This document shows positions 9,064 to 41,794 of a stretch of 64,000 bases of DNA, piece after piece. Below the pieces are notes generated by a model. The model saw only the letters and a program-made list of their open reading frames with translations, ran no database searches and was not told where the DNA came from. Every line of letters begins with the position of its first letter. Position 1 is the stretch's first letter. Made by a program: the position numbers and the translations under genes. Source of the DNA: an uncultured archaeon (lineage in GTDB: Archaea > Thermoproteota > Nitrososphaeria > Nitrososphaerales > Gagatemarchaeaceae); contig CAWFOU010000007.1 in the NCBI GenBank assembly GCA_963817525.1, forward strand, positions 640,001-704,000, read 5' to 3'.

Positions 9064-9864
9064 CTAGGCTCCGCCGCCGTACTTTCTAGACATCTCTCTC
9101 TTGCTGGTGAAGCTGCCGTGCTTCCCTATGGCCTCCTCCATCTTCTGGAGGACCGCCCCCATGACCTTGTCCGCCTGCTTGTAGTCGTCCGCCGTCACCC
9201 TCACCCTATAGCGAGGCGCCCCCACATAGGTCATCCTGATCTCGGCCGCGGAGGACGCGCCCAGCCCTGCGGCCAGCGCCTTTTTGATCTGCAGAATCCC
9301 GTCGGCCGCGTTCGAGCTCATCTCCACTATGGTCCCGACCTCGTATTTCGGCGAGGCTATCTTCTCTCTAGCGATGGTGACCATCTCGTTGACCACGTCC
9401 GCAGGGAAGCTCAAGGCGGCGAAGGTCTTCTCGCCCCTCTTCGCGGCGTCCTCAAGCGCCTCGTAGAGCGTGCCGTACTCCTGCTGTAGCTTGACGACCA
9501 CGTCGGAGAACTGCCTGTCGTCCATACCCAGTTTCTTCTGCACCATCGACAGTATGGTCATCGCCTTCTCCTTCTGCTTCCACTCGATCAGCTTGTTCCG
9601 CCTCTCCTCGTTTGTGACCTGCCTGAGCGAAAGGTCGACCTCCCTCCTCGACTTTTCTGCCCTCACCACCTTGAGCACTAGCTTCTGCCCCACCTTCGCG
9701 ACCCTCTCTATGTTCCTGACCCAGCCAGTGGAAATCTCCGAGATGTGGAGGAAACCGTTCATGCCGTTGTATTCGTCGAGGTCGACATAGATGCCGTGGG
9801 ACGTGATCTCCCTCACCGTACACAGCACGATGTCCCCTCTCTCCGGTAGCTCGCCTGTCTCCAT
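9064..9864 (-). CDS. eif2a: Translation initiation factor 2 alpha
   Basis: S1 domain LDEY...LHISEISTGWVRNI, YVGAPRYR. Confidence 0.95.
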   Translation of the reverse strand: METGELPERGDIVLCTVREITSHGIYVDLDEYNGMNGFLHISEISTGWVRNIERVAKVGQKLVLKVVRAEKSRREVDLSLRQVTNEERRNKLIEWKQKEKAMTILSMVQKKLGMDDRQFSDVVVKLQQEYGTLYEALEDAAKRGEKTFAALSFPADVVNEMVTIAREKIASPKYEVGTIVEMSSNAADGILQIKKALAAGLGASSAAEIRMTYVGAPRYRVRVTADDYKQADKVMGAVLQKMEEAIGKHGSFTSKREMSRKYGGGA

Positions 9865-9907
9865 GTGGTAATCTACTCCCGCTGACCTTTGACGAGAAGG
9901 CCTGTTA

Positions 9908-10105
9908 TTAATCCAGTCTCTTAATCACCGGGGCGTCGACCTCTACCTTTCCCCCGGTCTTGCTGGCGAGCTTCCTTCCGCAGCCCCTGCACGTCACGTC
10001 CCTCGTGGACGCGGAGAACATAGACCTCTCCTCGCCGCAGTCAGGACACTTCACCAGGAGGAAGCTGCTCCTGGGCTTTGGTATGAACTCTCGCTCTCTC
10101 TTCAT
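9908..10105 (-). CDS. rps27e: 30S ribosomal protein S27e
   Basis: PKPRSSFLLVKCPDC...CRGC...TGGK. Confidence 0.95.
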   Translation of the reverse strand: MKREREFIPKPRSSFLLVKCPDCGEERSMFSASTRDVTCRGCGRKLASKTGGKVEVDAPVIKRLD

Positions 10106-11194: not shown

Positions 11195-11950
11195 ATGTTT
11201 TTCGCGAAGACTGCAGGCTCACAAGAGTGGAAGGCTGTTGCAGCGGCGATAAAGACGCTCGTGGAGGAGGCGACCTTCGAGGTCTCTAGCGAGGGCCTAG
11301 TCTTCAGGGCAATGGACCCTTCTCACATCGCACTCGTGGATCTCAATTGGCCAAACTCTGCGTTCGAGAAATTCGAGTGCGACAAGCCGACCAAATTCAC
11401 GCTAAGGGTGGAAGACTTTGTGAAGCTGATCGCGAGGACTGATGCCAAGGACAGCGTGGAGATAGCCTCCAGCGAAGATGACGCGCTCACGCTCAGGCTG
11501 ATGAACGGATACAAGCGCGAGTTCAAGGTCCACCTGATTGAGACGACACCGGGCACCGCTCCCCTCCCAAAATTGGACCTCGACGTCAAGCTGACCATGA
11601 GCAAGAGCGTGTTCGAGAAGGTCCTTGGGGACATCTCGGTTGTGGCAGACCAAGTCATGATATCCTCACTAAAGGAGGGGGTCTCTTTCTCCGGAAAGAG
11701 CGACGTGGGAGCAGCCACCATACAGCTAGACAAGGGCGGCGCGGATGTACTTGACCTGCAGGTGAAGCTGGAAGCGAAGGCAAGCTACAACATCGATTAT
11801 CTTTTAGGGATCGCAAAGGCAGTAGGCTCAGCATCAGATACGGTAGTGATAGAGTACTCATCTAAGAAGCCTTGCAGGCTCCAATTTCGCCTCAATGAGC
11901 AAGGTGCGCAGATTTTCTACTTCCTCGCACCTCGCATCCAAGAGAATTAG
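11195..11950 (+). CDS. pcn: DNA polymerase sliding clamp PCNA
   Basis: AMDPSHIALVD motif and C-terminal YFLAPRI. Confidence 0.95.
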   Translation: MFFAKTAGSQEWKAVAAAIKTLVEEATFEVSSEGLVFRAMDPSHIALVDLNWPNSAFEKFECDKPTKFTLRVEDFVKLIARTDAKDSVEIASSEDDALTLRLMNGYKREFKVHLIETTPGTAPLPKLDLDVKLTMSKSVFEKVLGDISVVADQVMISSLKEGVSFSGKSDVGAATIQLDKGGADVLDLQVKLEAKASYNIDYLLGIAKAVGSASDTVVIEYSSKKPCRLQFRLNEQGAQIFYFLAPRIQEN

Positions 11951-12157
11951 TCCCGTTTCCTAAAATAAGCTCAAATCTTGTCTTGCCATACTCTTCCTTT
12001 ACAATTTAGCTTCTTTAATGTATTGTAGATGTAGCCGAGTTTTTTCGCAATAACTTGGGTCGACTTGTTCGAGCCCCAAAAAGGTCCACCGTCGAGGATA
12101 AGAGAACTAGTCTGCCCCTCACTATTCTTATAATCGACGGCCCGTCGAAGCAACCTC

Positions 12158-13243
12158 TTGTCCGTGAGCAGCCCCAAGCCCGAGACCGGCCCCTCCCATG
12201 CGGACGAGAAGAGCACCGCGTTCCTGAGGAGGACCTTCCGGGAGCACTACTTCAGGCACCACGACGACGTCGAGGTCCCCACCATGATCGAGAAAAGGGA
12301 GTTCGGATACATCCCGTTCGGGAAGGGGATGGTGAGGCACCTCTCCTACAAGTCCTCGGGCGAGCTGGCGGCCGACCTGGTGAAGCAGGCCCCGTCGTCG
12401 GCCTTCTGCTCCAACGGGGTCTACTCCGACCCGAGACTGCCGATGGACGAGAAGGGATGGAAGGGCGCCGAGCTGATCTTCGACATAGACTCGAGCTCGA
12501 TCCCCACGCCCTGCAGGAGCAAGCACAGCTTCTGGACGTGCAAGAGCTGCGGCAAGGTCACCCGGTCGGCAGAGAGGCCGGCGCGCTGCCCGAGGTGCGA
12601 GGGGACCAACACGACACAGCTTCACTGGAGCTGCGCGGAGTGCCTGGAGGCCACCAAGGAACACGCCTCCCGGCTGATAGGCTTCCTGACCGACGACTTC
12701 GGGGTCCCGAGCGCGAGCATCAGCGTGTACTTCTCAGGGAACAGGGGGTATCACCTCCACGTGCAGGACGAGAGGTTCGAGGGGCTGGACTCCCCAGCCC
12801 GCGCGGAGATTGCGAACTACATCAGGGGCACCGGCCTGTCTCTCCCGCAAGTGTCCGACTACTTGCCCGCCGTGGGCTGGGCGGGGAGGATAGCCGCCGG
12901 CGGCGACAAGGACCGCCCGAAGCTGGCGCATGTGGTCGACTCGTTCGGCTCCAATATCGACGAGTCCGTCACAACCGATATACACCGGATTTTCCGCATG
13001 CCTGGGACGTTGCACGGCAACTCCGGGTTGCTGAAGATGAGGGTCCACGACCTGCGCGCGTTCAGGCCGGACTACGACCCAGTGGTTCTCGGAGACGACG
13101 AGGTCACCCTTTCAGTGCAGGGCGCGCCCGCGTTCAGCCTAAAGGGGAGGACGTTCGGGCCGTACTCGTCCGAGGAGCCCGAGCTCCCTACGTACGCCGC
13201 CGTCTACCTGATGACCAAGGGGCTAGGGAAGGTCCTCGAGTAG
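12158..13243 (+). CDS. priS: DNA primase small (catalytic) subunit
   Basis: KREFG, ELIFDID, FSGNRGYH, IDESVTTDIHRIFRMPGTLH; contains a CxxC...CPRC Zn insertion. Confidence 0.95.
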   Translation: MSVSSPKPETGPSHADEKSTAFLRRTFREHYFRHHDDVEVPTMIEKREFGYIPFGKGMVRHLSYKSSGELAADLVKQAPSSAFCSNGVYSDPRLPMDEKGWKGAELIFDIDSSSIPTPCRSKHSFWTCKSCGKVTRSAERPARCPRCEGTNTTQLHWSCAECLEATKEHASRLIGFLTDDFGVPSASISVYFSGNRGYHLHVQDERFEGLDSPARAEIANYIRGTGLSLPQVSDYLPAVGWAGRIAAGGDKDRPKLAHVVDSFGSNIDESVTTDIHRIFRMPGTLHGNSGLLKMRVHDLRAFRPDYDPVVLGDDEVTLSVQGAPAFSLKGRTFGPYSSEEPELPTYAAVYLMTKGLGKVLE

Positions 13244-13825
13244 ATGGAGAACATACCAACCGTGGAGAGGCTGAGGCAGGTCCTGCAGTCCGAGGAGGCC
13301 TCTGAGGAGCTCACCGTGATCCCTCCGGACACCTACGTACGACTGAGCAGCTACGCCCAGAAACTCCGTGCGACCATAGGGTCGGGCAACGACGACATCC
13401 CAGGGCGCATCGCAAGGAAGCAGCTCTGGCTGATCGAGGTGATGACGAGGCGGCTCCTCCAGCTTCGCCTGAGCAAGGCGCGGAGGAAGACCCCCCAGGA
13501 GGGGCAGCCCGCGCGCCCCTCAAAGAACCTCCTGCCCGAGGAGGCCTACATAGACGACGTGCTGCAGCAGTCCGTAAGGAAGGAGGAGAGGTTCCTAAAG
13601 GCGGTCGTGGACGGGCAGCCATCCTTCTTCACGCTCGTGCAGAGGGGGGAGACGCAGAGGATGACCACGGTGAGGATCTCGAAGCGCGTCGGCGAGATAA
13701 TAGGTGCAGATCTGAAGAGATACGGGCCCTTCGAGGTGAACGACGTGGCGAGGATCCCGATGGGGAACGCCCAGGCGATGGTCGCGGGTAGCCAGGCAGT
13801 GCCTATCTCAGGCGACGAGCTCTAA
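13244..13825 (+). CDS. GINS complex subunit (Gins51/Gins15 type)
   Basis: Follows priS directly; helical A domain then B domain IIGADLKRYGPFEVNDVARIP. Confidence 0.85.
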   Translation: MENIPTVERLRQVLQSEEASEELTVIPPDTYVRLSSYAQKLRATIGSGNDDIPGRIARKQLWLIEVMTRRLLQLRLSKARRKTPQEGQPARPSKNLLPEEAYIDDVLQQSVRKEERFLKAVVDGQPSFFTLVQRGETQRMTTVRISKRVGEIIGADLKRYGPFEVNDVARIPMGNAQAMVAGSQAVPISGDEL

Positions 13826-15078
13826 GAGTCTAATGGGCGCTTAAATCCAGTACGCAACTTCAAACCCGGACACCAATGATACGAGCCTACTCATTTCGCT
13901 TTTACCCAACTTCAAAGCAATCTCAGAGGCTCGAAGAGACGCTTGAACTGTGCCGATTACTCTACAACGCCGCGCTAGAGCAACGCAGGTATGCCCGCGG
14001 CCTAGGGCAACCAATCTCCTACCACATCCAGCAAAACCAACTCCCCGAATTGCAGGAGGTACTGGAGGGGTTCAAGCAGGTTTACTCGCAAGTCTTGCAA
14101 AACGTGTTACGGAGGGTCGATTTTGCCTTCAAGAACTTCTTTGACAGGTGTTCGAGGAGAAAGAAAGGCGAGCGAATCAATGCCGGATATCCTAGATTCA
14201 AACCCTCCTGGAGATACAACTCGTTCACGTATCCGCAAGATGGCTTCAAGATACTGCCCTCCGGCCATATCTTGCTCTCGAAAATCGGAAAGCTGAGGGT
14301 CTTCATGCACAGGAGGATTGCGGGGGAAATCAAGACCCTCACTCTGAAGCGCGATCAAGTCGGAGACTGGTTTGTGGTAATCACTACTAGGCTTGCGGAA
14401 GTCCCACCAATTCAACCAACGTCTGCGCTAGGAGTCGACGTCGGCTTGAAAAGCCTGGTCACGTTGAGCTCCGGCGAACAAACAGAAGCACCGAAGTTCT
14501 TGAGAGTATCTGAACTGAAGTTGACTCGGGCCCAGAGAGCTTTCAGCCGCAAGCTTCCCGGATCTAACAATAGAAAGAAGGCCCGTCTCAAACTGGCCAA
14601 GATTCACAGGAAGATTGCACGACAAAGGGGCGACTTTCTGCACAAGCTTTCGAGGAATCTTGTCCGCAAGACCGACCTGCTGATTTTCGAAAACCTCCAC
14701 ATACCGAACATGACCAAGAACCAAAAGCTGGCGAAGTCAATACATGACGCTTCTTGGGGAACTTTGATTCGATACGCTTCTTACAAGGCTTCGAGCGCCG
14801 GTAGGAAAGTCGAGCAGATAGACCCGAGAGGCACAACGCAACGATGTTCAGGATGCAGAAGTAGCGTCAAGAAATCTCTGTCGGAGAGGGTTCATCGGTG
14901 TCCAATTTGTGGGCTCATCTTGGACAGGGACTTGAATGCGGCGCTTAACATCCTGGACGTAGGGAGGGGCACTCCCGAACTCAAGCCTGAGGAGACTCGG
15001 CCACCGCTTCCGATTTCCGGGAGCGAGCATCGAGTCGAGGAGGCAGGAAGCCCACGACTATTCGTGGGAGGATGTCAC
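13826..15078 (+). mobile_element. Non-autonomous IS1341-like element (tnpB only)
   Basis: Right end GAAGCCCACGACTATTCGTGGGAGGATGTCAC (hairpin plus TCAC); no tnpA; left end inferred just after the GINS stop. Confidence 0.65.
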
Positions 15079-15084
15079 GAGTAG
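13876..15084 (+). CDS. tnpB: RNA-guided endonuclease TnpB (IS200/IS605 family)
   Basis: AYSFRFYPT, CRLLYN, RuvC GVDVG / FENL / DRDLNAALNI, Zn finger CSGC...CPIC. Confidence 0.95.
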   Translation: MIRAYSFRFYPTSKQSQRLEETLELCRLLYNAALEQRRYARGLGQPISYHIQQNQLPELQEVLEGFKQVYSQVLQNVLRRVDFAFKNFFDRCSRRKKGERINAGYPRFKPSWRYNSFTYPQDGFKILPSGHILLSKIGKLRVFMHRRIAGEIKTLTLKRDQVGDWFVVITTRLAEVPPIQPTSALGVDVGLKSLVTLSSGEQTEAPKFLRVSELKLTRAQRAFSRKLPGSNNRKKARLKLAKIHRKIARQRGDFLHKLSRNLVRKTDLLIFENLHIPNMTKNQKLAKSIHDASWGTLIRYASYKASSAGRKVEQIDPRGTTQRCSGCRSSVKKSLSERVHRCPICGLILDRDLNAALNILDVGRGTPELKPEETRPPLPISGSEHRVEEAGSPRLFVGGCHE

Positions 15085-17684: not shown

Positions 17685-18196
17685 GCAGGAACAGCCGCTT
17701 CTGTCTTCTTTAGCTGCGTGACGACTATCTTGTATGTGAACGGGAGCTTCGTGGTCGCCGCCTTCAGGGCCGCCTTGGCCTTCTCGAGGTTCTCCGCCTT
17801 GATCAGGATGTCCAGTATTACGCTGCCGATGTCGACTCGCGCCGCGACCCCTATAGGCTTCCCGAACGCCTTGCGCATCCCCTCCTGCAGCCTGTCCGCT
17901 CCTGCGGTGGCGATCATCTTGTTCTCGCGCATCACCACAAATGGGTACGAGACCACCCGAAGGTAGAACGCCTCCTCGCCGACGAGGGCGAGCTTCTTGC
18001 TCGCCGCGACCCTCGCCGCCTCTAGCGCGTTGCTCCTTATCTGGAGCCGGTTCAAGGAGACCAGCTCAAGCTTGTAATCGTAATCGGCGCTGAACTTGCC
18101 TGTGGTGAACCTCGCGACCTTGGGGTTGGGGGTGCCAGGTGCGAACTTCTTGTTGTAAAACATTGACTTCGCTTCGCGATAATTTGCTCCGTGGAC
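17681..18196 (-). CDS. rpl10e: 50S ribosomal protein L10e (uL16)
   Basis: IRSNALEAAR, RENKMIATAGADRLQEGMRKAFGKP; homology-like HGANYR continues upstream of the ATG at 18163 to a GTC at 18196. Confidence 0.9.
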   Translation of the reverse strand, partial: VHGANYREAKSMFYNKKFAPGTPNPKVARFTTGKFSADYDYKLELVSLNRLQIRSNALEAARVAASKKLALVGEEAFYLRVVSYPFVVMRENKMIATAGADRLQEGMRKAFGKPIGVAARVDIGSVILDILIKAENLEKAKAALKAATTKLPFTYKIVVTQLKKTEAAVPA

Positions 18197-18445
18197 CCCC
18201 CTTCACCTCTTCAAGACGGCCACCTTGGCGACCCCTAATTAATGTTGACTAATCCGCTCTGGCAGCCATGCTAGTGGCTTCCTAAATCCACCCAGCGAAG
18301 TACCCTGTTTTATCAACGGCCGCAATTCTACGCATTGTCGATTGCGTCCAAACTCAAAAGAATTGCCCTGTCTACCCGCGAGTTATGGGTGCCTCGTAGT
18401 TTGGGCAGGCCCTTCTATTCCAATAGTTCCACTCGGAGATAGTCC

Positions 18446-18517
18446 GTTCGGACGGCTCTGGTGCGTCTTAGGGAGATAGGCCCTCGAGAACTTATGGTGG
18501 TGCATCTCGGGAGATGG
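18446..18517. repeat. 72-bp repeat, copy 1 (inverted relative to 19226-19297)
   Basis: Reverse complement matches 19226-19297 at 66 of 72 positions by manual alignment. Confidence 0.9.
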
Positions 18518-18606
18518 CATCTCAGCGCTGGTAGTGGCCCCCATCGGCACCGTTCGGACAAAGATGTATTAGTTACTAACTGACCCTGATAGAATCGTGC
18601 CGCCTT

Positions 18607-19209
18607 ATGCCATCGAGAACAGCGGTCGGAACAGTGGCAATCGTCCTCGGCATCGTGATCGTAATTGCAGCAACAGGCGCCATCTTCTATGTCAACGAAT
18701 CAGCTACCAATCCAGTCCAAATACACACACTGTCAACGACTTCCATCACCTCAGTCAGGACAATAGTTTCCAGTCAGTCCGCGACATCAAGTTCAGCCGC
18801 GACCTCCGCAGATTCTGAAACGTGCTACCAAGGCTCAGTGCCCACGAACACCTCGGCGTCTGGCAGCCAATCGGCATACAGCAGAACCGTCTTCAATGTC
18901 ACACAGGAATTCAATTCGTGGAGTTGGATGTCCTTGTCCACCTTCAAGGTCGGGTCGTATACCTTCGTCACTACAAACCCCGCAACGACCCAGGGCGTCA
19001 CCACGTTGGAGCCTCAACTATTCTTCAATGTGACGAACAGTCAAGGCCAGATGCAAACAACCAGTTTTACGAATCTGGGCGGCTGGAACGGCCAAGTGTG
19101 GCCTCCTGACATGGGGCTTCAGGCAGCGCTCTTCGGAGGGGATGCGACCATACAGTGGCTCTTTCTTTGCAACAGTCAGAATGTCTTCTTGGAGGTAACA
19201 ACGCAGTAG
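18607..19209 (+). CDS. Membrane-anchored/secreted Ser/Thr-rich protein
   Basis: N-terminal hydrophobic helix, S/T linker, N-glycosylation sequons. Confidence 0.7.
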   Translation: MPSRTAVGTVAIVLGIVIVIAATGAIFYVNESATNPVQIHTLSTTSITSVRTIVSSQSATSSSAATSADSETCYQGSVPTNTSASGSQSAYSRTVFNVTQEFNSWSWMSLSTFKVGSYTFVTTNPATTQGVTTLEPQLFFNVTNSQGQMQTTSFTNLGGWNGQVWPPDMGLQAALFGGDATIQWLFLCNSQNVFLEVTTQ

Positions 19210-19225
19210 GTTAACAGAATCTTTT

Positions 19226-19297
19226 CCATCTCCCGAGTTGCACCAGCATAAGTTCTCGAGGGCCTATCTCCCGAAGACGCACTAGAGCCGTTCGGAC
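19226..19297. repeat. 72-bp repeat, copy 2
   Basis: Inverted copy of 18446-18517. Confidence 0.9.
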
Positions 19298-19345
19298 AAA
19301 ACTATTAGTTTAGGCGGGCTATCCAATCACTATCGAGGCCCTAGC

Positions 19346-20095
19346 ATGGCGCAGACTGTCAATGGCAACAAGAGTCTTGTTTACGTAGCTTCGGCAATAC
19401 TCGCCGCTGGAATTCTTGTTTCTGCCGGACTTATTCTCGTCCCTACATCGCACTCCACGACGACCGTGACGTCCACTTCCACGACGACCTCGACGACGAC
19501 TCTAACGACGTACCCCGGGCTCCTCGCCTATTGTGCCTCCGCGAACTCCTACACACAACATGAGAACGTGGATATGGTGGTCGGGACCAGCCCTCCGGCG
19601 ATCCTCTGCCTTCAGCTCTACGATATCAACTCGACCTCCCCTATCGTAGTCGACACTGCCAGTCTAGTTTCGGTCCAGGGTTCCGAGCAGGGATTCGTCG
19701 GCGGAGGGAATTTCACGGTCATCGCGAGTCAGGACCAACTCACACTGGGGGGACCCTCGAACCTCAATGAAGGCACGATTGTCGCGTACGCCATCACGGC
19801 CAGACCAGGCGCGAACGGCACCTACTCGCTGCAGATTGGCGGTTGGCATCTCATAGGCATAGATGAGGAGCTGTGCCCGTTCTACGGTCAAGTCATCGCG
19901 GGGACGGGGCAGCCCAACTATTTTCGCGGCTTGGATGGCGGTGGCTCCCCCTGCACAGTCATCAATACTCTGCCAAATGGCTCAGTGAAGCTAAGCCCGG
20001 CAGAGGAGTCTGAGATTCCAGGAGTAGCAAACGGCTATGTCATGAACAGCACCCTCTACTTCAAAGCCATCGACGTCGTCGATTCAACACAATGA
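19346..20095 (+). CDS. Membrane-anchored surface protein (paralog of the next gene)
   Basis: Anchor plus Thr linker; shares PAI.CLQLY, GGGNFT, QLTLGGPSN..EGT.VAYAITA.PGA.G with 20096..20899. Confidence 0.75.
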   Translation: MAQTVNGNKSLVYVASAILAAGILVSAGLILVPTSHSTTTVTSTSTTTSTTTLTTYPGLLAYCASANSYTQHENVDMVVGTSPPAILCLQLYDINSTSPIVVDTASLVSVQGSEQGFVGGGNFTVIASQDQLTLGGPSNLNEGTIVAYAITARPGANGTYSLQIGGWHLIGIDEELCPFYGQVIAGTGQPNYFRGLDGGGSPCTVINTLPNGSVKLSPAEESEIPGVANGYVMNSTLYFKAIDVVDSTQ

Positions 20096-20899
20096 ATGTG
20101 TGAGAGCACTATGCCATTACAGGTGAATCGTAGGAGAAGCATCGGTTACGTCATCGCAGCGATGGTTGTCGCCGGAATCCTCGTGTCAACAACGCTCATC
20201 CTCGTCCCTCGGTCGCTCTCCACGACCACCACAGTGTATGCGACCGCGACAGAGACGACCACATTGACCGCTACACAGACGATGACGCTCGCAAACGTGT
20301 CAACCCGAAGCGCGGGAATCAACGCCTCAAACAGCGCAGCGCTCCTCGCAGCTTGCGCGTCCACGCACTCTACATCAACGGGCTACGTGGTTATCGGGCC
20401 TAGCTCTCCCGCGATTGTCTGTCTCCAGCTCTACGAATTCAACTCGAACTCGTCCATCGACCTGAACACCACGGGTCTCCTTTCAGTCGGAGGTTCAGAG
20501 GAGGAGTTCGGGCCGAGCATCGGCGGAGGCAACTTCACCATTCAGACGAGCCAGGGTCAGCTGACACTGGGAGGCCCCTCCAACGCCGATGAAGGCACGA
20601 CTGTCGCGTACGCCATCACGGCCAAGCCAGGGGCGAGCGGGCAGTACGCCTTGTTAATAGACGGCTGGAATGTCCCGGGCGAGGGAGGTGCGCCGGAGGA
20701 ATGTCCAAGCTGGGGAGTGCTCTTCGCAGGGAATGGTGAGCCCGACTACGCTATGAACGGGCCGATAGGCTCGTGCATAACTATTGTTTCATCAGCTCCG
20801 CCGAGTACACCGCAGCCTTTCTCAATCCCGGGAGTCAACTACGTCACGAGCAACACTCTCTACTTCAATGTAGTCGCCGTCATTGATTCAGTCCAATGA
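20096..20899 (+). CDS. Membrane-anchored surface protein (tandem paralog)
   Basis: Same motifs as the preceding gene. Confidence 0.75.
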   Translation: MCESTMPLQVNRRRSIGYVIAAMVVAGILVSTTLILVPRSLSTTTTVYATATETTTLTATQTMTLANVSTRSAGINASNSAALLAACASTHSTSTGYVVIGPSSPAIVCLQLYEFNSNSSIDLNTTGLLSVGGSEEEFGPSIGGGNFTIQTSQGQLTLGGPSNADEGTTVAYAITAKPGASGQYALLIDGWNVPGEGGAPEECPSWGVLFAGNGEPDYAMNGPIGSCITIVSSAPPSTPQPFSIPGVNYVTSNTLYFNVVAVIDSVQ

Positions 20900-20957
20900 A
20901 ACCCTAGGAATGAACAGCGACTGAAAGTGCGCGGCGGGATTTTTCGCCGGAAGAATC

Positions 20958-22199
20958 TCAGGCCAAGTCAAATTCGCGTGTTTGTCGCTGCCCACCATCA
21001 TGAGGAGCCATCATCGGGTGCCTCCTTAACGGAAACTCATCAGGGGGCCAAATAACCGATGCGTAGAAACACCCTTTGCAGTATGCTTGCGCGTTGAAAA
21101 ACTCGAAGGCTCTTTGAGCTTCACGAAGCTTCTGGCCAACCAAGTAGGGCTGAATCTCCCTGAGAACGCGCAAGGCCCTGATCCCTGCGACGCCCTTCCT
21201 CCACAGCGGCTGCCAGCCGAGCGGCCTCTCCTTTGGCTTCTCCGGCCTCGGAAGCCCACATAAATCGGCAAATTGGAAGACCGGCTGCGGATCAGTCATC
21301 CTGAGATCCAAATCAACCGTAGTGGTGTCAAACTTCTTCAGGTAATGGGAGCCGATGCGAACCTCGCCCTGCACCAAGCCTCCTACCCATGCTCGATCAT
21401 CGTCCGATTGGATAACAACCTCGGGAACTTTCCACTGATTCATTAGGTCTGAGCTATTGCGAACTTCTGGCCATACACGTAATGCATCATTCCGGTCCCT
21501 CCTGACGAGGGAATGGAGAAGCGGGTGTTCGAGGTAATTCTGCGGTGTAGTCGTCTCGTCGGCGGCCATTCGTAATCCACCTCGTTTCTTGGTTCTCCAC
21601 GGAAATTCACCGCGCGACCAGATGTCGAGATTCCCGAAGCACCCTGAATGGCTCCCATATGGAGAGAAGAAAGACAACGCCTTTTCCGCTTCTTTCAGCT
21701 TCTCGCCAAGCAAGAAAGGCTGTAGCTCCTGCAGAACTCTGAAGGCCCGCAGGCCCGAGACGTTCTTGTGCCAGTTGGGCTTCCAATCATGATTCTTGAC
21801 TGGTTTTGACGGGTGCGACAGCCCGACGTAGTCAGAAAACTTGAAGACGGGCTCAGGGTCGGTCATCGAAACGTCGATGTTGAGGCAGGTCACATCGTAT
21901 CGCGTGTAGAATCTGGCTTGGATGCATCCTTCCGCTTGGGTCAGCCCTGCGACCCAGCGTCTACCTGTGGTCGTGGGGATAATCACTTGCGGAATGTTGC
22001 GCTGCATGATTTCTCGCATCTGTGGCCGCCTGGACCACTCGTGCGGCGACTCAATCGCGAAGCGTTTCATGTGATAACGGACCGTCCCGGGAGTCCGATA
22101 TCCCAGCCTGTCCGCTGCCTCCGCCAGGCCCTTGCTCGTCCTCACGACCTCTTCGAAATACGGTAGCCACTGCGGGCTCCCAAAGGGCGGCCGGGGCAT
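20958..22199 (-). CDS. HTH plus tandem LAGLIDADG-like domain protein
   Basis: N-terminal HTH (LAEAADRLGY..PGTVRYHM); two internal repeats WVAGLTQAEGCI / WVGGLVQGEVRI, each followed by MTDP.PVF.F and L.E.QP.L.G.K. Confidence 0.7.
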   Translation of the reverse strand: MPRPPFGSPQWLPYFEEVVRTSKGLAEAADRLGYRTPGTVRYHMKRFAIESPHEWSRRPQMREIMQRNIPQVIIPTTTGRRWVAGLTQAEGCIQARFYTRYDVTCLNIDVSMTDPEPVFKFSDYVGLSHPSKPVKNHDWKPNWHKNVSGLRAFRVLQELQPFLLGEKLKEAEKALSFFSPYGSHSGCFGNLDIWSRGEFPWRTKKRGGLRMAADETTTPQNYLEHPLLHSLVRRDRNDALRVWPEVRNSSDLMNQWKVPEVVIQSDDDRAWVGGLVQGEVRIGSHYLKKFDTTTVDLDLRMTDPQPVFQFADLCGLPRPEKPKERPLGWQPLWRKGVAGIRALRVLREIQPYLVGQKLREAQRAFEFFNAQAYCKGCFYASVIWPPDEFPLRRHPMMAPHDGGQRQTREFDLA

Positions 22200-22639
22200 C
22201 AGCTAGCGCCTCCCAGCCTCGTTATGGCCGAGCCCAACTCATCGATCGAATACGCCACGCCGTCGGCGTGGGCCAGGACTTCGCGGAGCACCCTTGCGAG
22301 CGTGACGGGTTCCTCGTGGGGCGCCTCGGCGAGCGCGACGCAGCGGATCCCCGGGTGCGAGCCCTTCAGGCGTTTGAACTTCACGTCGATGAACGCGGCG
22401 TTCCTCTCCATCCAGCCCAGAGCGACCCCCCTCCTTCCGATGGTCTTCCAGCATTCTAGGACCGTCCTGCGGTCGCTCAGGAAAAAGTCCACCACGATCA
22501 GCCTGCCCCCGTTGGCGAAGACCGCGTGGGTGAGGTGGGTAAGGCCCAGCTCGAGGAGGAGGTCGCGGACCTGCCTTTCCTGCTCCGTGAGGGGTATCAG
22601 GGCGTGCGCTCGGGTCATCCATTTTGAAGACGGGTTCAT
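22199..22639 (-). CDS. Vsr/DUF559-like PD-(D/E)XK nuclease
   Basis: LTEQE...IVVDFFL...VLEC pattern; TGATG overlap with the next gene. Confidence 0.6.
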   Translation of the reverse strand: MNPSSKWMTRAHALIPLTEQERQVRDLLLELGLTHLTHAVFANGGRLIVVDFFLSDRRTVLECWKTIGRRGVALGWMERNAAFIDVKFKRLKGSHPGIRCVALAEAPHEEPVTLARVLREVLAHADGVAYSIDELGSAITRLGGAS

Positions 22640-22779
22640 TGGAATAGTAGGATTATGGGCTATTTAATCACCACAAGGGTTTTATCTTGCTTAGTTATCT
22701 AATAGAGGCGATATTCTAGCTAATTTGGTCTTTATGCCCGAGAACGCTTATCTTCCCAAGGCTCCAAGCAGTTCGCGGG

Positions 22780-25579
22780 TTGAGTCCGAGGCTCGCGGAG
22801 CCCGCCCCACTTGCAAAGACCGAGTTCCTTACTGTTGATCAGAGAGGCTCTTGGAGCCCCGCCCAAGTCGCCGACAGAATCTACGACAGTTCGCGCACCT
22901 ACAGGAAAGAGCATTGCGCCATCTTCATCGACCCAGACTCGGTCGATGACTTTCTCCACGCCTCAGGTCTACAAGTGGACTTTCTAGACCCAGACGAAAA
23001 CTCGCACTGGACGGGAGTGCAAAGACCAGTCCACCCGAAGCTGAAGCCCATTCTGGTTGGAGACTATGATGAGTGGTTTCGCTGGTTCATGAAGTGGCAG
23101 AGGTTCAACGCTTTCCACATCATCGTCCTCATCAACCCAATCCGGAGGATGATTGATGACGACAGGAGGGGGTACTATGACGGCCTCCTCACGCGCCTGC
23201 TCAACAAGCAAGGCGTCCACAGAATCATCATTGTCGAAGAGGAGCGCTTCCAGCCGACGCTCAGAAGATGGATGGGCGGCGCCGTCCCCGGTGAGGAGGA
23301 CCAAGAGCTCAAGGCGAAGTTCGGGCAGAAGCAGTTCAGGGATGCGATATGCTCCATTCTCTATGGCACGCTCCTCTCCAACAGAAACCTCTCTGCTGCT
23401 GCCGCGAGTACCTTGTTCTCGAAGGTGAACCCAGCCTGGGAGCCGGCGCTCCAGGACCTGAAGCGCAAGGCTTTCCAGGTCGCAAGGACGCACCGCTGGT
23501 TCTACTCACTGGGGGACTATGGGAAGGAGATAGTCGAGGGCCTCGAGACGCCGGCGGTTCGGAAAACACTCGAGGATCCGCAGCAGTCGATTCCACCCCT
23601 GTTCAAGAGGAGAGGCAAGAGGTGCCCCTCGGAGCTCAACCAGGAATGGCTCGAGGGCCTCACGCAGTCCCTCCTTGACTCCCAAGGCTGGTTCACGGTC
23701 GCGGGCCTCTACCAGCACGTCGACGCCCAGACGCAGAGGGTGATCCAGACGTCAGGTTATCGCCCCCAGATTTTCAACGATCACTTTGACGACGAGCTGC
23801 CTAGCGAGATGCATGTCTGGGCGCCGAGTCGCCCACTCCTGCGTGGCATCGCCGAGAGGCTCGCGCAGGAGGGGAAGCTGCAGAAGGCCACCTGGGTAAG
23901 GGAGATCGGGCGGCCCACCACCGTCTATCACCTGCCAGGACAGCTGCCGTTCGACGCCAAGAACCGGTGCGGGCAGTGCGCTTTCTACGTCCCCTTGAGG
24001 CGCCAGTGCAGAATCTGGTGGCTCCTCGACAAGTCCTACGGCTCCAGATACGAAAGGTGGGGGAGGGATGGGGCTCGCCCGCTCTCGGGCTTCGAGATTC
24101 ACAAGATGAGGAACTCCTGGCGCATAGGCCCACATTCGTCCGCGTGCTCGAAGTTCGTCGACAAGAAGAAGGACTACAGCCGGCTCTCACTCCCCGAGCT
24201 CTGCGACGTGTGCCAAGAACGGCTTCCCGAGACGCCGCCAAAGTGGTCGATGGTGGTCTGCGGCACCTGCAGGACCCGATACTTCAGGCTCAGGCAAGGC
24301 AAGGTGAAGGTGCTCACGAGCTACGAGCACGAGTTCGAGAAGCGCTACCACGAGCTGGCGGGCGTAGACCGAGCATCGGACATTAAGCGCCTGATTGAGG
24401 AAAGGCAGGGCTCTGCGGGAAGCATCGTGGAGCAGGCCATATTCGACGAGCGCCGCCACGCGGGCGTCGACGACCCAGACTCTGCCCCCAAGACGGTGAT
24501 GCTGTTCCCCGGCGACAGGATGCTCGCGAGGGACGGGAGGCTCTACGTCTTCAAGAGGCGCAATGTGGAGTCGCTCCCCCTCGCGGGCAGCACAATAATC
24601 GACCACGGCGGCGTGGTGAACGAGGAGCAGAGGGGCGCCCTAGAGAGCGCCGGGACGACCGTGAGGTCAATCTCGAAGTCACCGGGTCTCAACAGCACCG
24701 GAGGGCCTCCGCCAAAGAGGTACGACATCGCCCCCGCCGTGGATAAGGTGGTCGGCGAGTACCCGGAGTTCCTGCGCCGGATGTCCCTCGCGATGGTCCA
24801 GAGCTCGATTCACGCCACGGAGCGCGTCGGCTCCCTCGCCCACATGTCGGAGGACGACGTGCAGACCTTCACCAGAAAGCAAAGGATGTACGCGCGACGT
24901 CTCGAGCGCGCGCCTCCAACCAGGTTCTTGGTCTATGAGGCCCTATCCATGAAGGAGTACTGGAACTGCTACTACCTGGTGCTCAAGGGCGCGTTTCAGA
25001 GGTTCGGCCCGCGCAAGAAGGCCCGGTTCGTGAGGGAGTTCGTCACAAACCCCGCGGGGAGGGCAAGGGGCTACACCGCGGTTGACGCGGCGATAAACTA
25101 CCTTCACCAGAGGAGATTCTTCAAGGCGAGGGCGGTCAACGTCCAGCTCGGCCTCGATTTCAACCCGGGAGAGGGATTCCTCCACAGGAAGAGGTGGAAC
25201 CCCGAAGGCCTCGGGCTGATCTTTGACCTCATCGACCCCTTCAAGTTCGCCGACAGAGAGAAGCTGCTCGGGGCCATCCTGGACGTCAGCGTGAACTGGA
25301 GGGACTTTTACGGCGCGACCGACAGGTCCGGGGCGCGGTTCTACTACCCAAAAGCCGGAGGCCATCGGTGTCCTCGAAGCGGTTGGCGAGGCGGCAGACA
25401 ATATGCCTGTGAATTACCAAGGAGAGAAAATTACGCTCGTAGAGGCTTACCGAAACGCCGTCTTGAGGCTAATCCAGAACCTGCAAGGCGGCACGCCAGC
25501 CTCATTCACACCCTTCGTCTTCCAAGGGTCAAATTCAGCGCTCAAGAGGAATGGAACGCCCCAGGCGGAGGCGCAATGA
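22780..25579 (+). CDS. Large Cas1-fusion protein (unknown N-terminal region, wHTH, Zn modules, Cas1), with a +1 frameshift at 25350-25353
   Basis: Cas1-like beta domain from about 24490, E in LVYEA, DAAINY, GEGFLH, LIFDLIDPF; the Cas1-like tail (VNYQGEKITL...FTPFVF, TGA 25577-25579) lies in the +1 frame. The unshifted ORF runs to 25737. Confidence 0.75.
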
Positions 25580-25759
25580 ACCCAAGCACGGCGATGCCCT
25601 GCAACTTCATTTTAGCGAAACATAGTGGAGCTCTTGGAGTTGGATTGGAGAGTACACCTTTCCGCGCCTTGTATGAATCGTTACAGAGAAATTTTCGGGG
25701 GGGGGGAAATAGTGGAAAATCCCATCAATGGATATAGTTAGCCCTTTATTCTCGGAGGT

Positions 25760-27649
25760 ATGGCGCCCGCGTCTCCTCTAGCCTCTATGCTGCATATCCA
25801 TGGAGAAAAAGTAAACCGGGTCTCAAAGGCAGTCCTACTATTGGCCCTACTGGCCGTCGCAGCGGTGTTTCTGATTTCCCCCGCTTCGGTAAACGCGGAG
25901 AGCGTGGGGACATGGAACCAGACCACCAGCTTCCCTGTTGCTGGTACCTCCTGCACCGCATACGCCGGGTACGCTTACTGCGTCGATGGCCAATATTCCT
26001 ACTACGGCCAGCTCACATCGTCAGGCATCGCTTCCTGGACGGCCACCACCAGCTATCCGGACACTGTAGACGCGGACCAGACGTGCGCCGCATCAGCAGG
26101 ATACATCTATTGCGTTGGGGGGACACCCACCTCAGGCGGCTCCGCTCCCAGCGATTACGCGTATTATGCTACCGCTACTGCATCTGGGATAGGGGCCTGG
26201 ATCGAGACCTCTGACTATCCGACCTTCATAACCGGTGTCTCATGCGTGATCTCGGCAGGATACATCTACTGCGCGGGAGGCGAGACGGGCGATGGCACCT
26301 TACAAACAGGCTTCGCCGCGTACGCGCCGGTCTCCTCGTCAGGCATCGGGACGTGGACGACCACCACTACGTATCCCCACCAAGTAGTTTCCCCCAACTG
26401 CGTGACTTCGAGTAGATACATCTACTGCGCCGGCGGGATGGGGGTCGTAGACGTCGGCCCCGAAAATACGACCGCTTACGCCGCCCTCTCCTCCTCGGGA
26501 ATAGGTCCTTGGACCGAGGGCCCACTCTATCCGTCGACGATCAGCGGATATGGGGAGTCGCCTTATTCCTGTGTCGCGTCGGACGGCTACATGTACTGCA
26601 TCGGCGCATACAGTTCCTATGAGAGCTCACCTGAGGTCAACTACGCCTCGCTCTCCTCGTCCGGAATCGGGGCATGGACGGCCACGACCGCCTATCCAGG
26701 CACTTCGTCGAGTGGTGACACATGCACTTCATCGGGCGGCTACATCTATTGCGTGGGAGGCGACGGAAGCACCTCTTCAAGTGCCACAGTCTATTACGCT
26801 CAGATAACCGCACCCCCATCTTCGCAGCTGACTGTGACAAGCCAGGACACCAGCGGCAACACGATAAGCGGCTACTACACAGTGCTCAATCAGAGCAACG
26901 CTATTGTGGCCTCAGGATTCACGCCGTACACATTCACTCTGAACGACGGCCAAACCTATACGGTGCAAGTCGACAACTATGGCTCCTGCACGTTCTCGCA
27001 TTGGCTCGACACGGGAAGCACGACGTCAAGCAGGACGGTGTCCATCACCAGCAACACCCAGTACACGGCCGTGTACAGCTGCGCTTCGAGCAGCGGCGGC
27101 CCGTCGAGCGTGACCGTGGACACGGTCAACCAGGATGGCGGCGCGATCACCGGCTACAACATCGCGCTCTATGGGTCGGGTGGTAATTTCATCTCTAGCG
27201 GGTTCTCGCCGGCGAGCTTCAGCACGACCGCGGGCGAGGGGTACGAGCTTGTGGCGGACAGCTACGGGAGCTGCACCTTCAGCCAGTGGTCAAACGGCGC
27301 GAGCGACCCGATGTCCTTCACCGCGACGAGCTCGGCGCAGACTTTCACTGCGGTCTACAACTGCACCAGCACGAACGAGTCCACCATCAACGTCTCCACG
27401 GTGAACTCGTCCGGCACTCCGATCAGCGGATACTACATCACCCTCTGGCAGGATGGCGCTCAGCTTGGGAGCTGCTTCTCCGCCTGCTCGTTCACCGTGG
27501 ACGGCGGACAGTCTTACCAGGTCTTGGCCGACTCCTATGGCTCCGAGACGTTCAGCCACTGGCAGAACGACGGTTCAACGGGCTACGAGACGGTCATGGT
27601 CCCGATCAGCAGCACGACGATCGACCTGACAGCGGTCTACAGTCCATAG
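25760..27649 (+). CDS. Secreted Kelch-like beta-propeller protein with three C-terminal Ig-like repeats
   Basis: Signal peptide; repeats of C...GYIYC.GG...SSSGIG.WT.TT.YP; repeats of ISGY...YGSCTFS.W. Confidence 0.8.
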   Translation: MAPASPLASMLHIHGEKVNRVSKAVLLLALLAVAAVFLISPASVNAESVGTWNQTTSFPVAGTSCTAYAGYAYCVDGQYSYYGQLTSSGIASWTATTSYPDTVDADQTCAASAGYIYCVGGTPTSGGSAPSDYAYYATATASGIGAWIETSDYPTFITGVSCVISAGYIYCAGGETGDGTLQTGFAAYAPVSSSGIGTWTTTTTYPHQVVSPNCVTSSRYIYCAGGMGVVDVGPENTTAYAALSSSGIGPWTEGPLYPSTISGYGESPYSCVASDGYMYCIGAYSSYESSPEVNYASLSSSGIGAWTATTAYPGTSSSGDTCTSSGGYIYCVGGDGSTSSSATVYYAQITAPPSSQLTVTSQDTSGNTISGYYTVLNQSNAIVASGFTPYTFTLNDGQTYTVQVDNYGSCTFSHWLDTGSTTSSRTVSITSNTQYTAVYSCASSSGGPSSVTVDTVNQDGGAITGYNIALYGSGGNFISSGFSPASFSTTAGEGYELVADSYGSCTFSQWSNGASDPMSFTATSSAQTFTAVYNCTSTNESTINVSTVNSSGTPISGYYITLWQDGAQLGSCFSACSFTVDGGQSYQVLADSYGSETFSHWQNDGSTGYETVMVPISSTTIDLTAVYSP

Positions 27650-27770
27650 CGGAAGAAGAAGCAGCCGCACGCGGAGGTGGTCCCCCGGCGGGCCAATGAA
27701 CCCAGCCAATCTTTAGTTAGCGCCGCAATTCCGACAGCCGTAAATATTCTCCAGGAGATCATCATACGAC

Positions 27771-28121
27771 TTGGACAGCCGACGGAGCTGGGCAATAATT
27801 GGAGCAAACCTAGACAAACTCGTGGCCGTGATGCTGACCGTTCAGAAGGGAGCTTCGGTCGATGTCTTTTGCGATCCGACGGGAGCGAATCTATCCGTCG
27901 GCAGACCGTCCGGCGCGGCGAACATCAAACTCTGCGCAGTTAACGCCCCCGACCTCGAGGGTGGCTACGGTGTGAAATCACGTGGTGACGGATTCACGAA
28001 TGACGACGGGGAGGAGATTTCAAAGGAACAATTGCCAGCCTACTTGGTGCGGTACATCACAGGGGCGAAGGATGGAGGCGCGGAATGGGGCTGGGAGTTC
28101 AAGTTGAGCGGCGACGGGTGA
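27771..28121 (+). CDS. Hypothetical protein
   Basis: 116-aa ORF preceded by a TAAATA box; no motif recognised. Confidence 0.4.
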   Translation: MDSRRSWAIIGANLDKLVAVMLTVQKGASVDVFCDPTGANLSVGRPSGAANIKLCAVNAPDLEGGYGVKSRGDGFTNDDGEEISKEQLPAYLVRYITGAKDGGAEWGWEFKLSGDG

Positions 28122-28315
28122 TGGTGCAGCTATCTGCTGCATATTTGGCCCGAAACGACGCCAGTTAACAACACGTACAGTTACCGTGTCGGACGAATGG
28201 GGCAGGCTGTCGTGCTTCACTTCACCATGACCAACTGATCAAATGCCCCGGCGGAGGCGCAACTAACCCGAAGGCCATCAAGCCTTAATTAGCGTCAAGC
28301 CTCAGAAAGTGGTTC

Positions 28316-41628: not shown

Positions 41629-41794
41629 AGGCTGTCCGTCTGCCGCGACCACGGGTTGCTTAAAAGATTGAGAACGTGATCTTTCGACTAGGACCTTCTC
41701 AGACTGCTTGTACGACGACGTCTCATATTGCTCGAGGTTCGTGATTTAGGCCATTCGTTGAGGCCCCACAACGGATTTATCGTCGCGGCCGATC

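Follow-up and report, generated by a model that had tools for sequence, protein, structure and literature searches.

Two settings are known for Cas1: the capture of spacers by CRISPR systems and the transposition of casposons. Casposons of Thaumarchaeota are described in the available part of PMC6563490, and the accessible text of PMC4046053 divides the Cas1-solo proteins into group 1, which is found in Methanomicrobiales and is inactive, and group 2, which represents the casposons. According to the available part of a review, the Cas1 homologues that Makarova et al. 2020 (CRISPR J) reported from Asgard archaea are diverse to a degree not seen before, and some of them may belong to new mobile elements. 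The subject of this report is a three-gene module in a stretch of 64,000 nucleotides (the window: positions 640,001 to 704,000 of contig CAWFOU010000007.1, assembly GCA_963817525.1) from an uncultured archaeon of the Gagatemarchaeaceae, Nitrososphaerales. The largest gene of the module encodes a protein here called Cas1L. With high confidence, Cas1L represents a small family of giant Cas1-family integrases, neither CRISPR-associated nor casposases, which have a dedicated partner of the PD-(D/E)xK nuclease fold and occur in one soil lineage of Nitrososphaerales.

The features of the module are listed below in window coordinates.

20958-22199, minus strand: third gene, an open reading frame (ORF) of 413 residues with a helix-turn-helix (HTH)-like start and two repeats (ORF list).
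22199-22639, minus strand: gene of a 146-residue protein with predicted PD-(D/E)xK nuclease fold (ORF list, AlphaFold2 model and Foldseek).
22657-22730, no strand: conserved non-coding block of the divergent gap (alignment of 17 module gaps).
22780-25737, plus strand: ORF of 985 residues, Cas1L as annotated (ORF list).
22780-25353, plus strand: residues 1-858 of Cas1L in the correct frame (ORF, motif positions, AlphaFold2 model of homologue P0003, Foldseek and PADLOC).
About 25347-25354, plus strand: one-base insertion in the run CCCAAAAG, with a shift of frame after K858 (tblastn and DNA alignment).
25355-25579, plus strand: true C-terminal 74 residues of Cas1L (PEAIGVLEAVGEAADNMPVNYQGEKITLVEAYRNAVLRLIQNLQGGTPASFTPFVFQ...) in the shifted frame, with the stop codon at 25577-25579 (conserved in homologues).

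All three ORFs were found where the original prediction had placed them, including the single base shared by the two minus-strand genes (TGA/ATG), with the third gene translationally coupled to the nuclease gene. The gap that it had described as AT-rich and about 140 bp long extends from 22640 to 22779 and measures 140 bp, with a G+C content of 0.42 versus about 0.6 in the surroundings. Every sequence motif that it had quoted is present in the 985-residue ORF at the residue given: LAQEGKL at 361, CGQC at 397, CDVC at 475, CGTC at 494 and KTVMLF at 571, followed in the Cas1 part by E720, DAAINY at 769, H802 and D816/D819.

The fold was studied on P0003, an intact homologue of 926 residues that is 81% identical to the window protein. 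Domain limits given below follow the numbering of its AlphaFold2 model, which runs about 2 residues lower than that of the window protein. The model was computed from an alignment of 40 sequences and has a mean pLDDT (predicted local distance difference test) of 81.8. A Foldseek search with it returned the casposase 6opm as best match (E 2.3e-8) and more than 25 Cas1 entries, with a probability of 1.00; the best matches covered 355-390 columns at E 2e-8 to 5e-7. The two-domain Cas1 fold is present, with an N-terminal beta domain and a C-terminal helical catalytic domain. Residues E720, H802, D816 and D819 of the window Cas1L are the equivalents of E141, H208, D218 and D221 of the E. coli protein. 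All 71 aligned Cas1 domains have E718, H800 and D814 (numbered as in P0003), and at position 817 they carry either D or E. The conserved Asn of Cas1 is also kept, as N773 in the window protein. The assignment of the C-terminal part of the 985-residue ORF to Cas1 thus holds, well beyond chance, by fold probability and by the placement of the catalytic E/H/D/D set.

By sequence the relationship is far more distant. The NCBIfam model cas1 (TIGR00287) matched residues 711-824 of the window protein in register but weakly (E=0.043), with 12.9 bits against a cut-off of 71.7, and a Pfam scan of the same protein, PF01867 included, gave no match at E<=1. A paralogue encoded on contig C2 of the same genome reaches the PF01867 cut-off exactly (22.3 bits). 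A precomputed PF01867 match is recorded for 9 of 82 homologues, and some homologues are labelled Cas1 by their source annotation. The Cas1 models of PADLOC matched an intact homologue with E=3.5e-6 and the paralogue with 4.2e-9. The family profile A1 matched no Cas1 among the PDB sequences. Homology to Cas1 is seen only by the fold and by the PADLOC models.

The module is conserved. The Cas1L family comprises 82 matches in clusters at 90% identity, and 157 matches at E<=1e-3 among 1.84 billion representative proteins. Members have about 820-930 residues, and the intact relatives of the window copy 886-928. With one genome taken per species, 27 Cas1L loci were found; neighbourhoods were counted over 29 loci. 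Archaeal metagenome-assembled genomes, labelled mostly Nitrososphaerota, Nitrososphaerales or Thaumarchaeota, account for 25 of the 27, the other two being labelled 'bacterium' (L026) and 'Nitrospira sp.' (L027). A nuclease gene stands divergent from the Cas1L gene in 24 of 29 loci, and the remaining five are truncated at the 5' end and retain only 3' remnants of Cas1L. The genome of the window carries on contig C2 a second three-gene module, in which Cas1L is 28% identical to that of the window and the nuclease 37% identical, with a different third gene. Of the three-gene neighbourhood that the original prediction had suggested looking for in related metagenome-assembled genomes, the Cas1L/nuclease pair is conserved; a third gene of the window type adjoins the pair at just 8 of the 29 loci. 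In two cases (L007/L008 and L010/L029, each pair on one contig) two diverged modules are convergent, 12-16 kb apart, and bracket conserved housekeeping genes. Three contigs each carry three modules within about 100 kb.

Within the host lineage the distribution is patchy. Of 401 genomes sampled from the class, 2 gave a match to Cas1L; the family has matches in 20 out of 97 genomes and the genus in 10 out of 22, many of these genomes being incomplete. Internal stops occur in 16 of the 58 Cas1L matches listed. For close pairs the ratio of nonsynonymous to synonymous substitution rates (dN/dS) is 0.19-0.24 for Cas1L and for the nuclease alike, which indicates purifying selection. The module is regarded as functional but dispensable.

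Compared with the Cas1 of CRISPR systems (PF01867; PDB 4n06, 7mi9, 8d3p), Cas1L shares the two-domain fold over about 355-390 positions, the conserved N and all four catalytic positions (E, H, D and D/E). It differs in about 570 additional N-terminal residues, in the lack of Cas2, an array and other cas genes, in its separate clade, and in a sequence diverged so far that Pfam misses the window protein. The genome assembly has a size of 2.82 Mb and is 95% complete, so that absences from it are not absolute. Within this assembly no match was obtained to Cas2 (PF09827) or to protein-primed PolB (PF03175, the one PolB family searched), no canonical Cas1 was found, and a k-mer scan for CRISPR-like arrays returned only two Ser/Thr-rich coding repeats. 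The independence from CRISPR proposed earlier is in agreement with these searches.

A quick maximum likelihood tree was calculated from 71 rows and 352 columns. It is unrooted, its canonical references are restricted to the class, and several long branches were flagged. The rows include 20 of the 40 rows of A1 and six further representatives, and 43 canonical Cas1 sequences reduced to 19 at 65% identity; the partial domains P0223, P0224, P0179, P0209 and P0222 were left out, as was L043. The genomes G231, G327 and G132 entered one tally (147 of 401), and no other statement depends on them. A branch with a Shimodaira-Hasegawa-like approximate likelihood ratio test (SH-aLRT) value of 99 has the 26 family rows as one of its two sides. 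The 19 canonical rows lie apart from these and include a clade whose genes, in four genomes, have protein-primed PolB no more than 8 kb away. The Cas1 tree suggested with the original prediction thus gives Cas1L its own clade outside both CRISPR Cas1 and the casposases, on the side that also holds most of the large Asgard-type Cas1 fusions. That Cas1L is an orphan left over from a lost CRISPR-Cas adaptation module is hardly credible. The Cas1 annotation of some homologues and the 9 PF01867 matches are what such an origin could claim; it is opposed by the separation from the class's own 19 representatives of canonical Cas1 and casposases, by a fusion architecture and a partner gene of its own under purifying selection, and by the lack of cas2 and of an array in the genome.

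Group 1 of the Cas1-solo proteins (Methanomicrobiales, Makarova 2013) was compared by description only, from the accessible text of PMC4046053. It resembles Cas1L in having no CRISPR link and no sign of horizontal transfer, but it belongs to another host lineage and is without the full catalytic set, which Cas1L keeps.

The window copy of Cas1L is frameshifted. The tblastn match of the intact homologue P0002 (927 residues, 82% identical) runs along the ORF up to K858, after which it moves to the next frame. When the DNA is aligned with that of three orthologues, a single base too many appears in the run CCCAAAAG, at window 25347-25354. The true C-terminus (PEAIGVLEAVGEAAD...FTPFVFQ) is read in the next frame as far as the stop codon at 25577-25579, and the repaired protein would have about 932 residues. 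This shifted-frame C-terminus is kept in the homologues P0002-P0018 and in the C2 paralogue. Because the frame shifts at this run, the last 127 residues of the 985-residue ORF are false. The original prediction had followed Cas1 along the whole C-terminal part, which stands by fold and motifs but not for these out-of-frame residues. Either an error of sequencing or a mutation that inactivated the gene recently may account for the extra base, and the window Cas1L may be inactive owing to it. An old pseudogene is argued against by the conservation of the downstream frame and by a dN/dS of 0.2 versus locus L007.

Casposases (6opm; family 1 casposons, Thaumarchaeota) are similar to Cas1L in that they provide the best Foldseek match, are stand-alone Cas1 proteins and have an intact active site. 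The differences are the lack of protein-primed PolB in the genome, the lack of terminal inverted repeats (TIRs) and target-site duplications (TSDs), the placement in another clade, and fixed chromosomal positions. The original prediction had considered a PolB-less casposon-like transposon, an element made up of just these three genes, which Cas1L would carry to new sites. Intact catalytic residues, several copies and decayed fragments per genome, and TnpB-like genes near some loci speak for such an element, and nuclease genes, for example HNH, also occur in casposons according to the available parts of PMC4046053 and PMC6563490. It is nevertheless very unlikely. No TIRs above shuffled controls were found in 14 loci and no TSD at the boundary between filled and empty sites; near-identical copies within a genome are lacking, the two Cas1L proteins of the window genome sharing only 28% identity; and Cas1L lies outside the casposase clade. 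Between the conserved flanks of the module there is no ORF of the size of PolB. No tRNA gene was found beside the modules at 15 loci, nor near the module in the window. None of 142 pattern matches in viral contigs encodes a relative, so that relatives were not seen in viral or mobile contigs by this search. No fold match was obtained in BFVD at E<=0.001.

The position of the modules also argues against free transposition. In six genomes (that of the window and those of L007, L009, L010, L011 and L017) the window-type module is flanked by the L10e/Dph2 genes on one side and by a methyltransferase gene on the other, and the other subfamilies of Cas1L each have a fixed site of their own. Identity values of Cas1L go in step with those of the methyltransferase beside it (76/85, 65/77, 49/49 and 42/43%), and the modules diverge together with their flanks at orthologous sites. 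Within the genus the window-type site is full in the window, holds a remnant in genome G432 and is empty in genome G415 at locus L080, where 113 bp replace window 18194-28278. The comparison of filled and empty sites had been proposed for the detection of TIRs or TSDs, and neither was found. The CCTTAATTA repeats at the edges of the island are present twice in the empty site as well, and are for that reason promoters rather than duplications.

The interval 18194-28278 is a variable 10-kb island between the L10e gene and the methyltransferase gene. It also carries four genes of Ser/Thr-rich or repeat-rich proteins of secreted or membrane type (18607-19209, 19346-20095, 20096-20899 and 25760-27649). 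The remnant in G432 (L079, contig C3, 2686-3378) is a fragment of a LAGLIDADG-like gene of 230 residues that stands alone, with neither nuclease nor Cas1L gene, and L018 is a similar solo remnant.

In front of the Cas1 domains the P0003 model has an alpha/beta domain (about 1-170) and two winged-helix-like units (about 173-382). These are followed by two Zn-binding cysteine modules, given here in window numbering: a Cys4 cluster (C397/C400/C410/C456) and a Cys4 ribbon (C475/C478/C494/C497). A helical linker leads to the Cas1 beta domain, which begins at about 570, and then to the catalytic domain. The N-terminal alpha/beta region, the winged HTH and the CGQC and CDVC/CGTC clusters announced from the sequence were all seen, the model having two winged-helix-like units. 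Leads to the nature of the N-terminal domain were weak: Foldseek returned Lhr, Hel308 and Pol-theta at E 3e-3 to 8e-3, Atlas feature scores were 0.75-0.78 and below the trust level, and helicases in BFVD matched at E>=0.01. Walker motifs were not found among the conserved N-terminal residues.

The most distant relatives of Cas1L are proteins of 840-2080 residues, of which the named ones come from metagenome-assembled genomes of Helarchaeota, Promethearchaeota and Heimdallarchaeota. These Asgard giants share with Cas1L the winged-helix part, the Cys cluster, the Zn ribbon and the Cas1 core, and are placed on the same side of the tree. The Nitrososphaerales proteins differ in forming their own clade and in their N-terminus: in P0212, a helicase-Cas1 fusion, Pfam detects DEAD/Helicase_C, and in the window protein nothing. 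In an hhalign comparison with P0212 only the Zn ribbon and Cas1 were aligned, and not the N-terminal domain. The small PD-(D/E)xK partner of Cas1L was not detected as a fused part of the giant Asgard proteins (hhalign probability <1%). The Aloposons of Asgard archaea were considered and set aside as unrelated; the word 'Cas1' occurs 0 times in the available part of their description.

The 146-residue partner was modelled by AlphaFold2 with a mean pLDDT of 90.3, and by this model is a protein of PD-(D/E)xK nuclease fold. Foldseek matches include the nuclease domain of Can2 (E 1.7e-4), MUS81, R2 endonuclease, AF1548, XisH and BstEII. Among 17 aligned homologues Q20, E21, H38, D50, E62, C63 and E105 are conserved. 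A Pfam search with 17 members of the family gave no match at E<=10, and a PDB profile search gave none either. The protein had been called a DUF559/Vsr-like nuclease. This name is too specific and wrong at the level of the family: Pfam and PDB profiles offer no support for Vsr or DUF559, and no Vsr is found among the 50 best Foldseek matches.

The best fold of matching size is XisH (PDB 2inb, 2okf, 'FdxN element excision controlling factor'), with TM 0.55-0.62 normalised to the target. By its PDB title XisH is a small PD-(D/E)xK-like protein acting beside a DNA recombinase; it shares about 10% identity with the 146-residue protein and belongs with a different class of recombinase and a different host. 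Cas4 (SSO0001, 4ic1) is among the weak fold matches with a probability of 0.63; by eye, the 146-residue protein is without the Fe-S cysteines of Cas4. In CRISPR adaptation Cas4 trims for Cas1-Cas2, and in Tn7 TnsA serves TnsB. Both Cas4-Cas1 and TnsA-TnsB may be taken as working analogies, in each of which a PD-(D/E)xK nuclease is the partner of an integrase or a transposase.

A nuclease fold resembling MUS81 and archaeal endonucleases of the AF1548 type would also suit a host factor of DNA repair or recombination, that is, a domesticated integrase acting on chromosomal DNA with the nuclease as a structure-specific partner. Stable orthologous positions, a divergence that looks vertical and the weak helicase-like leads for the N-terminal region point the same way. 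Such a role is quite unlikely, given that no match was found in 77 of the 97 genomes of the family (many of them incomplete) and in 399 of the 401 sampled genomes of the class, that the gene is often pseudogenised, and that the conserved N-terminal residues include no Walker motifs.

The 413-residue product of the third gene begins with an HTH-like region, for which the match to HTH_18 is weak (E=0.036), and contains an internal duplication of two repeats of about 138 residues, whose score of 331 compares with at most 51 in shuffles. A LAGLIDADG-like motif stands at the start of both repeats (WVAGLTQAEGC and WVGGLVQGEVR). PDB profiles of I-CvuI and I-HjeMI matched at the motif without significance (E 0.7-1), and Pfam gave no LAGLIDADG match. 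The protein appears to be LAGLIDADG-like at the level of the motif only. In its description as an HTH plus twin LAGLIDADG-like protein the twin repeat is well founded, and the LAGLIDADG part is seen by motif and by the non-significant profile matches.

The third slot is variable. In the C2 paralogue the third gene is of a different type and encodes a protein matched by Pfam LAGLIDADG_3 at E=2.6e-5, which in an hhalign comparison aligns with the 413-residue protein only in the HTH part. Further LAGLIDADG-like variants were found in the L021 type (E=0.021) and, by motif, in the L033, L026 and L008 types, and L015, L016 and L028 have a Zn/HNH-like protein in this slot. Judged from these matches and motifs, the slot is usually occupied by a homing-endonuclease-like gene in one of several unrelated forms. 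Since no more than 8 of the 29 loci have the window type beside the module, and many loci have lost the gene or hold it in broken form, the third gene is not essential to the core pair.

A related but perhaps distinct system may be represented by L034, a locus on a metagenome contig. There, a distant Cas1 relative of 1383 residues is encoded between a gene with LAGLIDADG_3 and HTH domains (E=7.4e-11) and a gene of a DEAD-box helicase. The segment 530-11645 of this contig is of low G+C content and reads in one orientation, with a TnpB-like gene, the LAGLIDADG_3+HTH_3 gene, the Cas1 fusion and the helicase gene. The helicase protein has 1052 residues and the domains DEAD/Helicase_C/MZB/metallophosphatase.

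Innate defence or surveillance of DNA, in which the Cas1L-nuclease pair would recognise and cut or scramble invading DNA and leave no heritable record, was weighed as another function. It would account for the accessory and uneven occurrence (20 out of 97 family genomes), the moderate purifying selection (dN/dS about 0.2), the several diverged paralogues per genome, the nuclease partner and the helicase gene beside the distant relative in L034. The available part of the review also predicts some CRISPR-derived systems with odd forms of Cas1 in Asgard archaea to act in defence. All the same, this function is rather unlikely: Cas1 itself is the only PADLOC model that matches, the neighbours are housekeeping and secreted-protein genes with no known defence genes among them, a recurrent homing-endonuclease-like third gene would be unusual for defence, and no sensor or effector logic is evident.

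The divergent gap contains a conserved block at 22657-22730. Its parts are a TATA-like TATTTAA (22661-22667), ACAAGGGTTTTATC (22673-22686) and an imperfect palindrome, AGCTnGAtTCnAGCT (about 22706-22722). The block is recognisable in 17 of 17 aligned module gaps, including those of paralogues whose proteins are only 27-37% identical. It is present in one copy per locus, and no further copies of the gap motifs were found within 10 kb on either side of the module. A scan of the genome with the 18-mer of the gap, allowing up to 3 mismatches, also returned three unrelated places, one of which is the promoter at window 41764; these three matches were read as chance. The gap shows no consensus structure of an RNA gene (-0.29 kcal/mol, 0 covarying pairs), and an Rfam search of window 20500-26500 gave no match at E<=1. 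The block is a candidate for a bidirectional promoter combined with a protein-binding site.

In L009 the gap between the nuclease and Cas1L genes (9299-9988) has 690 bp versus about 140 bp, with the block at the nuclease end and an additional ORF of about 163 residues inserted. Between two conserved genes of the window (11195-11950 and 12055-13305), the interval 11951-12055 contains a stretch of 25 nucleotides of which 20 are identical to the promoter block of the L017 type. Its score of 25 is above all of 300 shuffles (maximum 24). In L015, L016 and L028 the site equivalent to this interval is occupied by a paralogous module. The stretch may mark the place of a module since lost, or be a promoter element that both have in common.

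Taken as a whole, Cas1L and its partners are read as a long-resident, site-bound cut-and-join module, selfish or semi-domesticated, which is neither an adaptive immune system nor a free transposon. The chances that this reading is right or wrong are put at about equal, with roles in defence and in repair as serious competitors. The mechanism set out next is plausible, with belief in it lying at or a little below the midpoint. The winged-helix and Zn part would anchor Cas1L on specific DNA, and the obvious candidate for this DNA is the palindromic block that lies in the gap with its promoter. Transesterification by the Cas1 domain would join 3'-OH DNA ends to the target, by analogy with Cas1 and the casposases. 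The PD-(D/E)xK partner might cut or trim the second strand or the ends, in the manner of Cas4 for Cas1-Cas2 and of TnsA for TnsB. The homing-type endonuclease would cut vacant or competing alleles, and repair by recombination would keep or restore the module at the same site. Maintenance of this kind resembles that of TnpB and elements of the IS605 family, as they are presented in the available part of PMC10690162.

Several observations weigh against the reading as a site-bound module and its mechanism. The Cas1L copy in the window is frameshifted. No signature of mobility was detected at all, neither TIRs nor TSDs nor identical copies: in each of 14 loci the inverted repeats at the ends of the module stay within the range of the shuffles, and the comparison of filled and empty sites yields no target-site duplication and no defined ends of an element. 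Many loci are without an intact third gene of the homing type, and its window type adjoins the pair at no more than 8 of the 29. In the small nuclease the canonical lysine of the (D/E)xK motif is absent, the residue two positions after E62 being W or T and K65 not being conserved, and the protein could serve as a subunit with no catalytic role. A promoter with its operator may be all that the gap block represents. Inheritance that looks vertical, together with purifying selection, fits a benefit to the host in defence or repair at least as well as selfishness.

The original prediction had recognised no described family with this architecture. In the covered literature on casposons, Cas1-solo proteins and Asgard Cas1, which was available in part and does not extend to Makarova et al. 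2020, no description of the Cas1L family, its nuclease partner or the link to LAGLIDADG proteins was found; the 2020 paper on Asgard Cas1 may include it. It is proposed tentatively, and as a doubtful idea, that the modules represent a third ancient use of Cas1, in which a DNA-reading Cas1, a nuclease and a homing endonuclease act together as a site-bound machine of insertion or maintenance. Cas1L would then stand as a third setting beside spacer capture and casposon transposition. If this is true, a Cas1 core common to Asgard archaea and Nitrososphaerota may predate the origin of CRISPR adaptation or run parallel to it, and if the conserved palindromic block is the target, Cas1L would be a naturally site-specific Cas1 integrase. 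A protein-guided, site-specific integrase of this kind would interest builders of molecular tools. The family bears on the origin of the CRISPR adaptation machinery and on other uses of Cas1 chemistry, and its small size, clear cis element and clear partners make biochemical tests easy to define.

Two further observations were made elsewhere in the window. An ORF of 402 residues at 13876-15084 clusters with an ORF of L013 that by eye looks TnpB-like, with a C-terminal Zn-ribbon motif. The cumulative GC skew has its minimum at about 41000-42000 and rises thereafter; a promoter region separating two divergent genes lies at this place.

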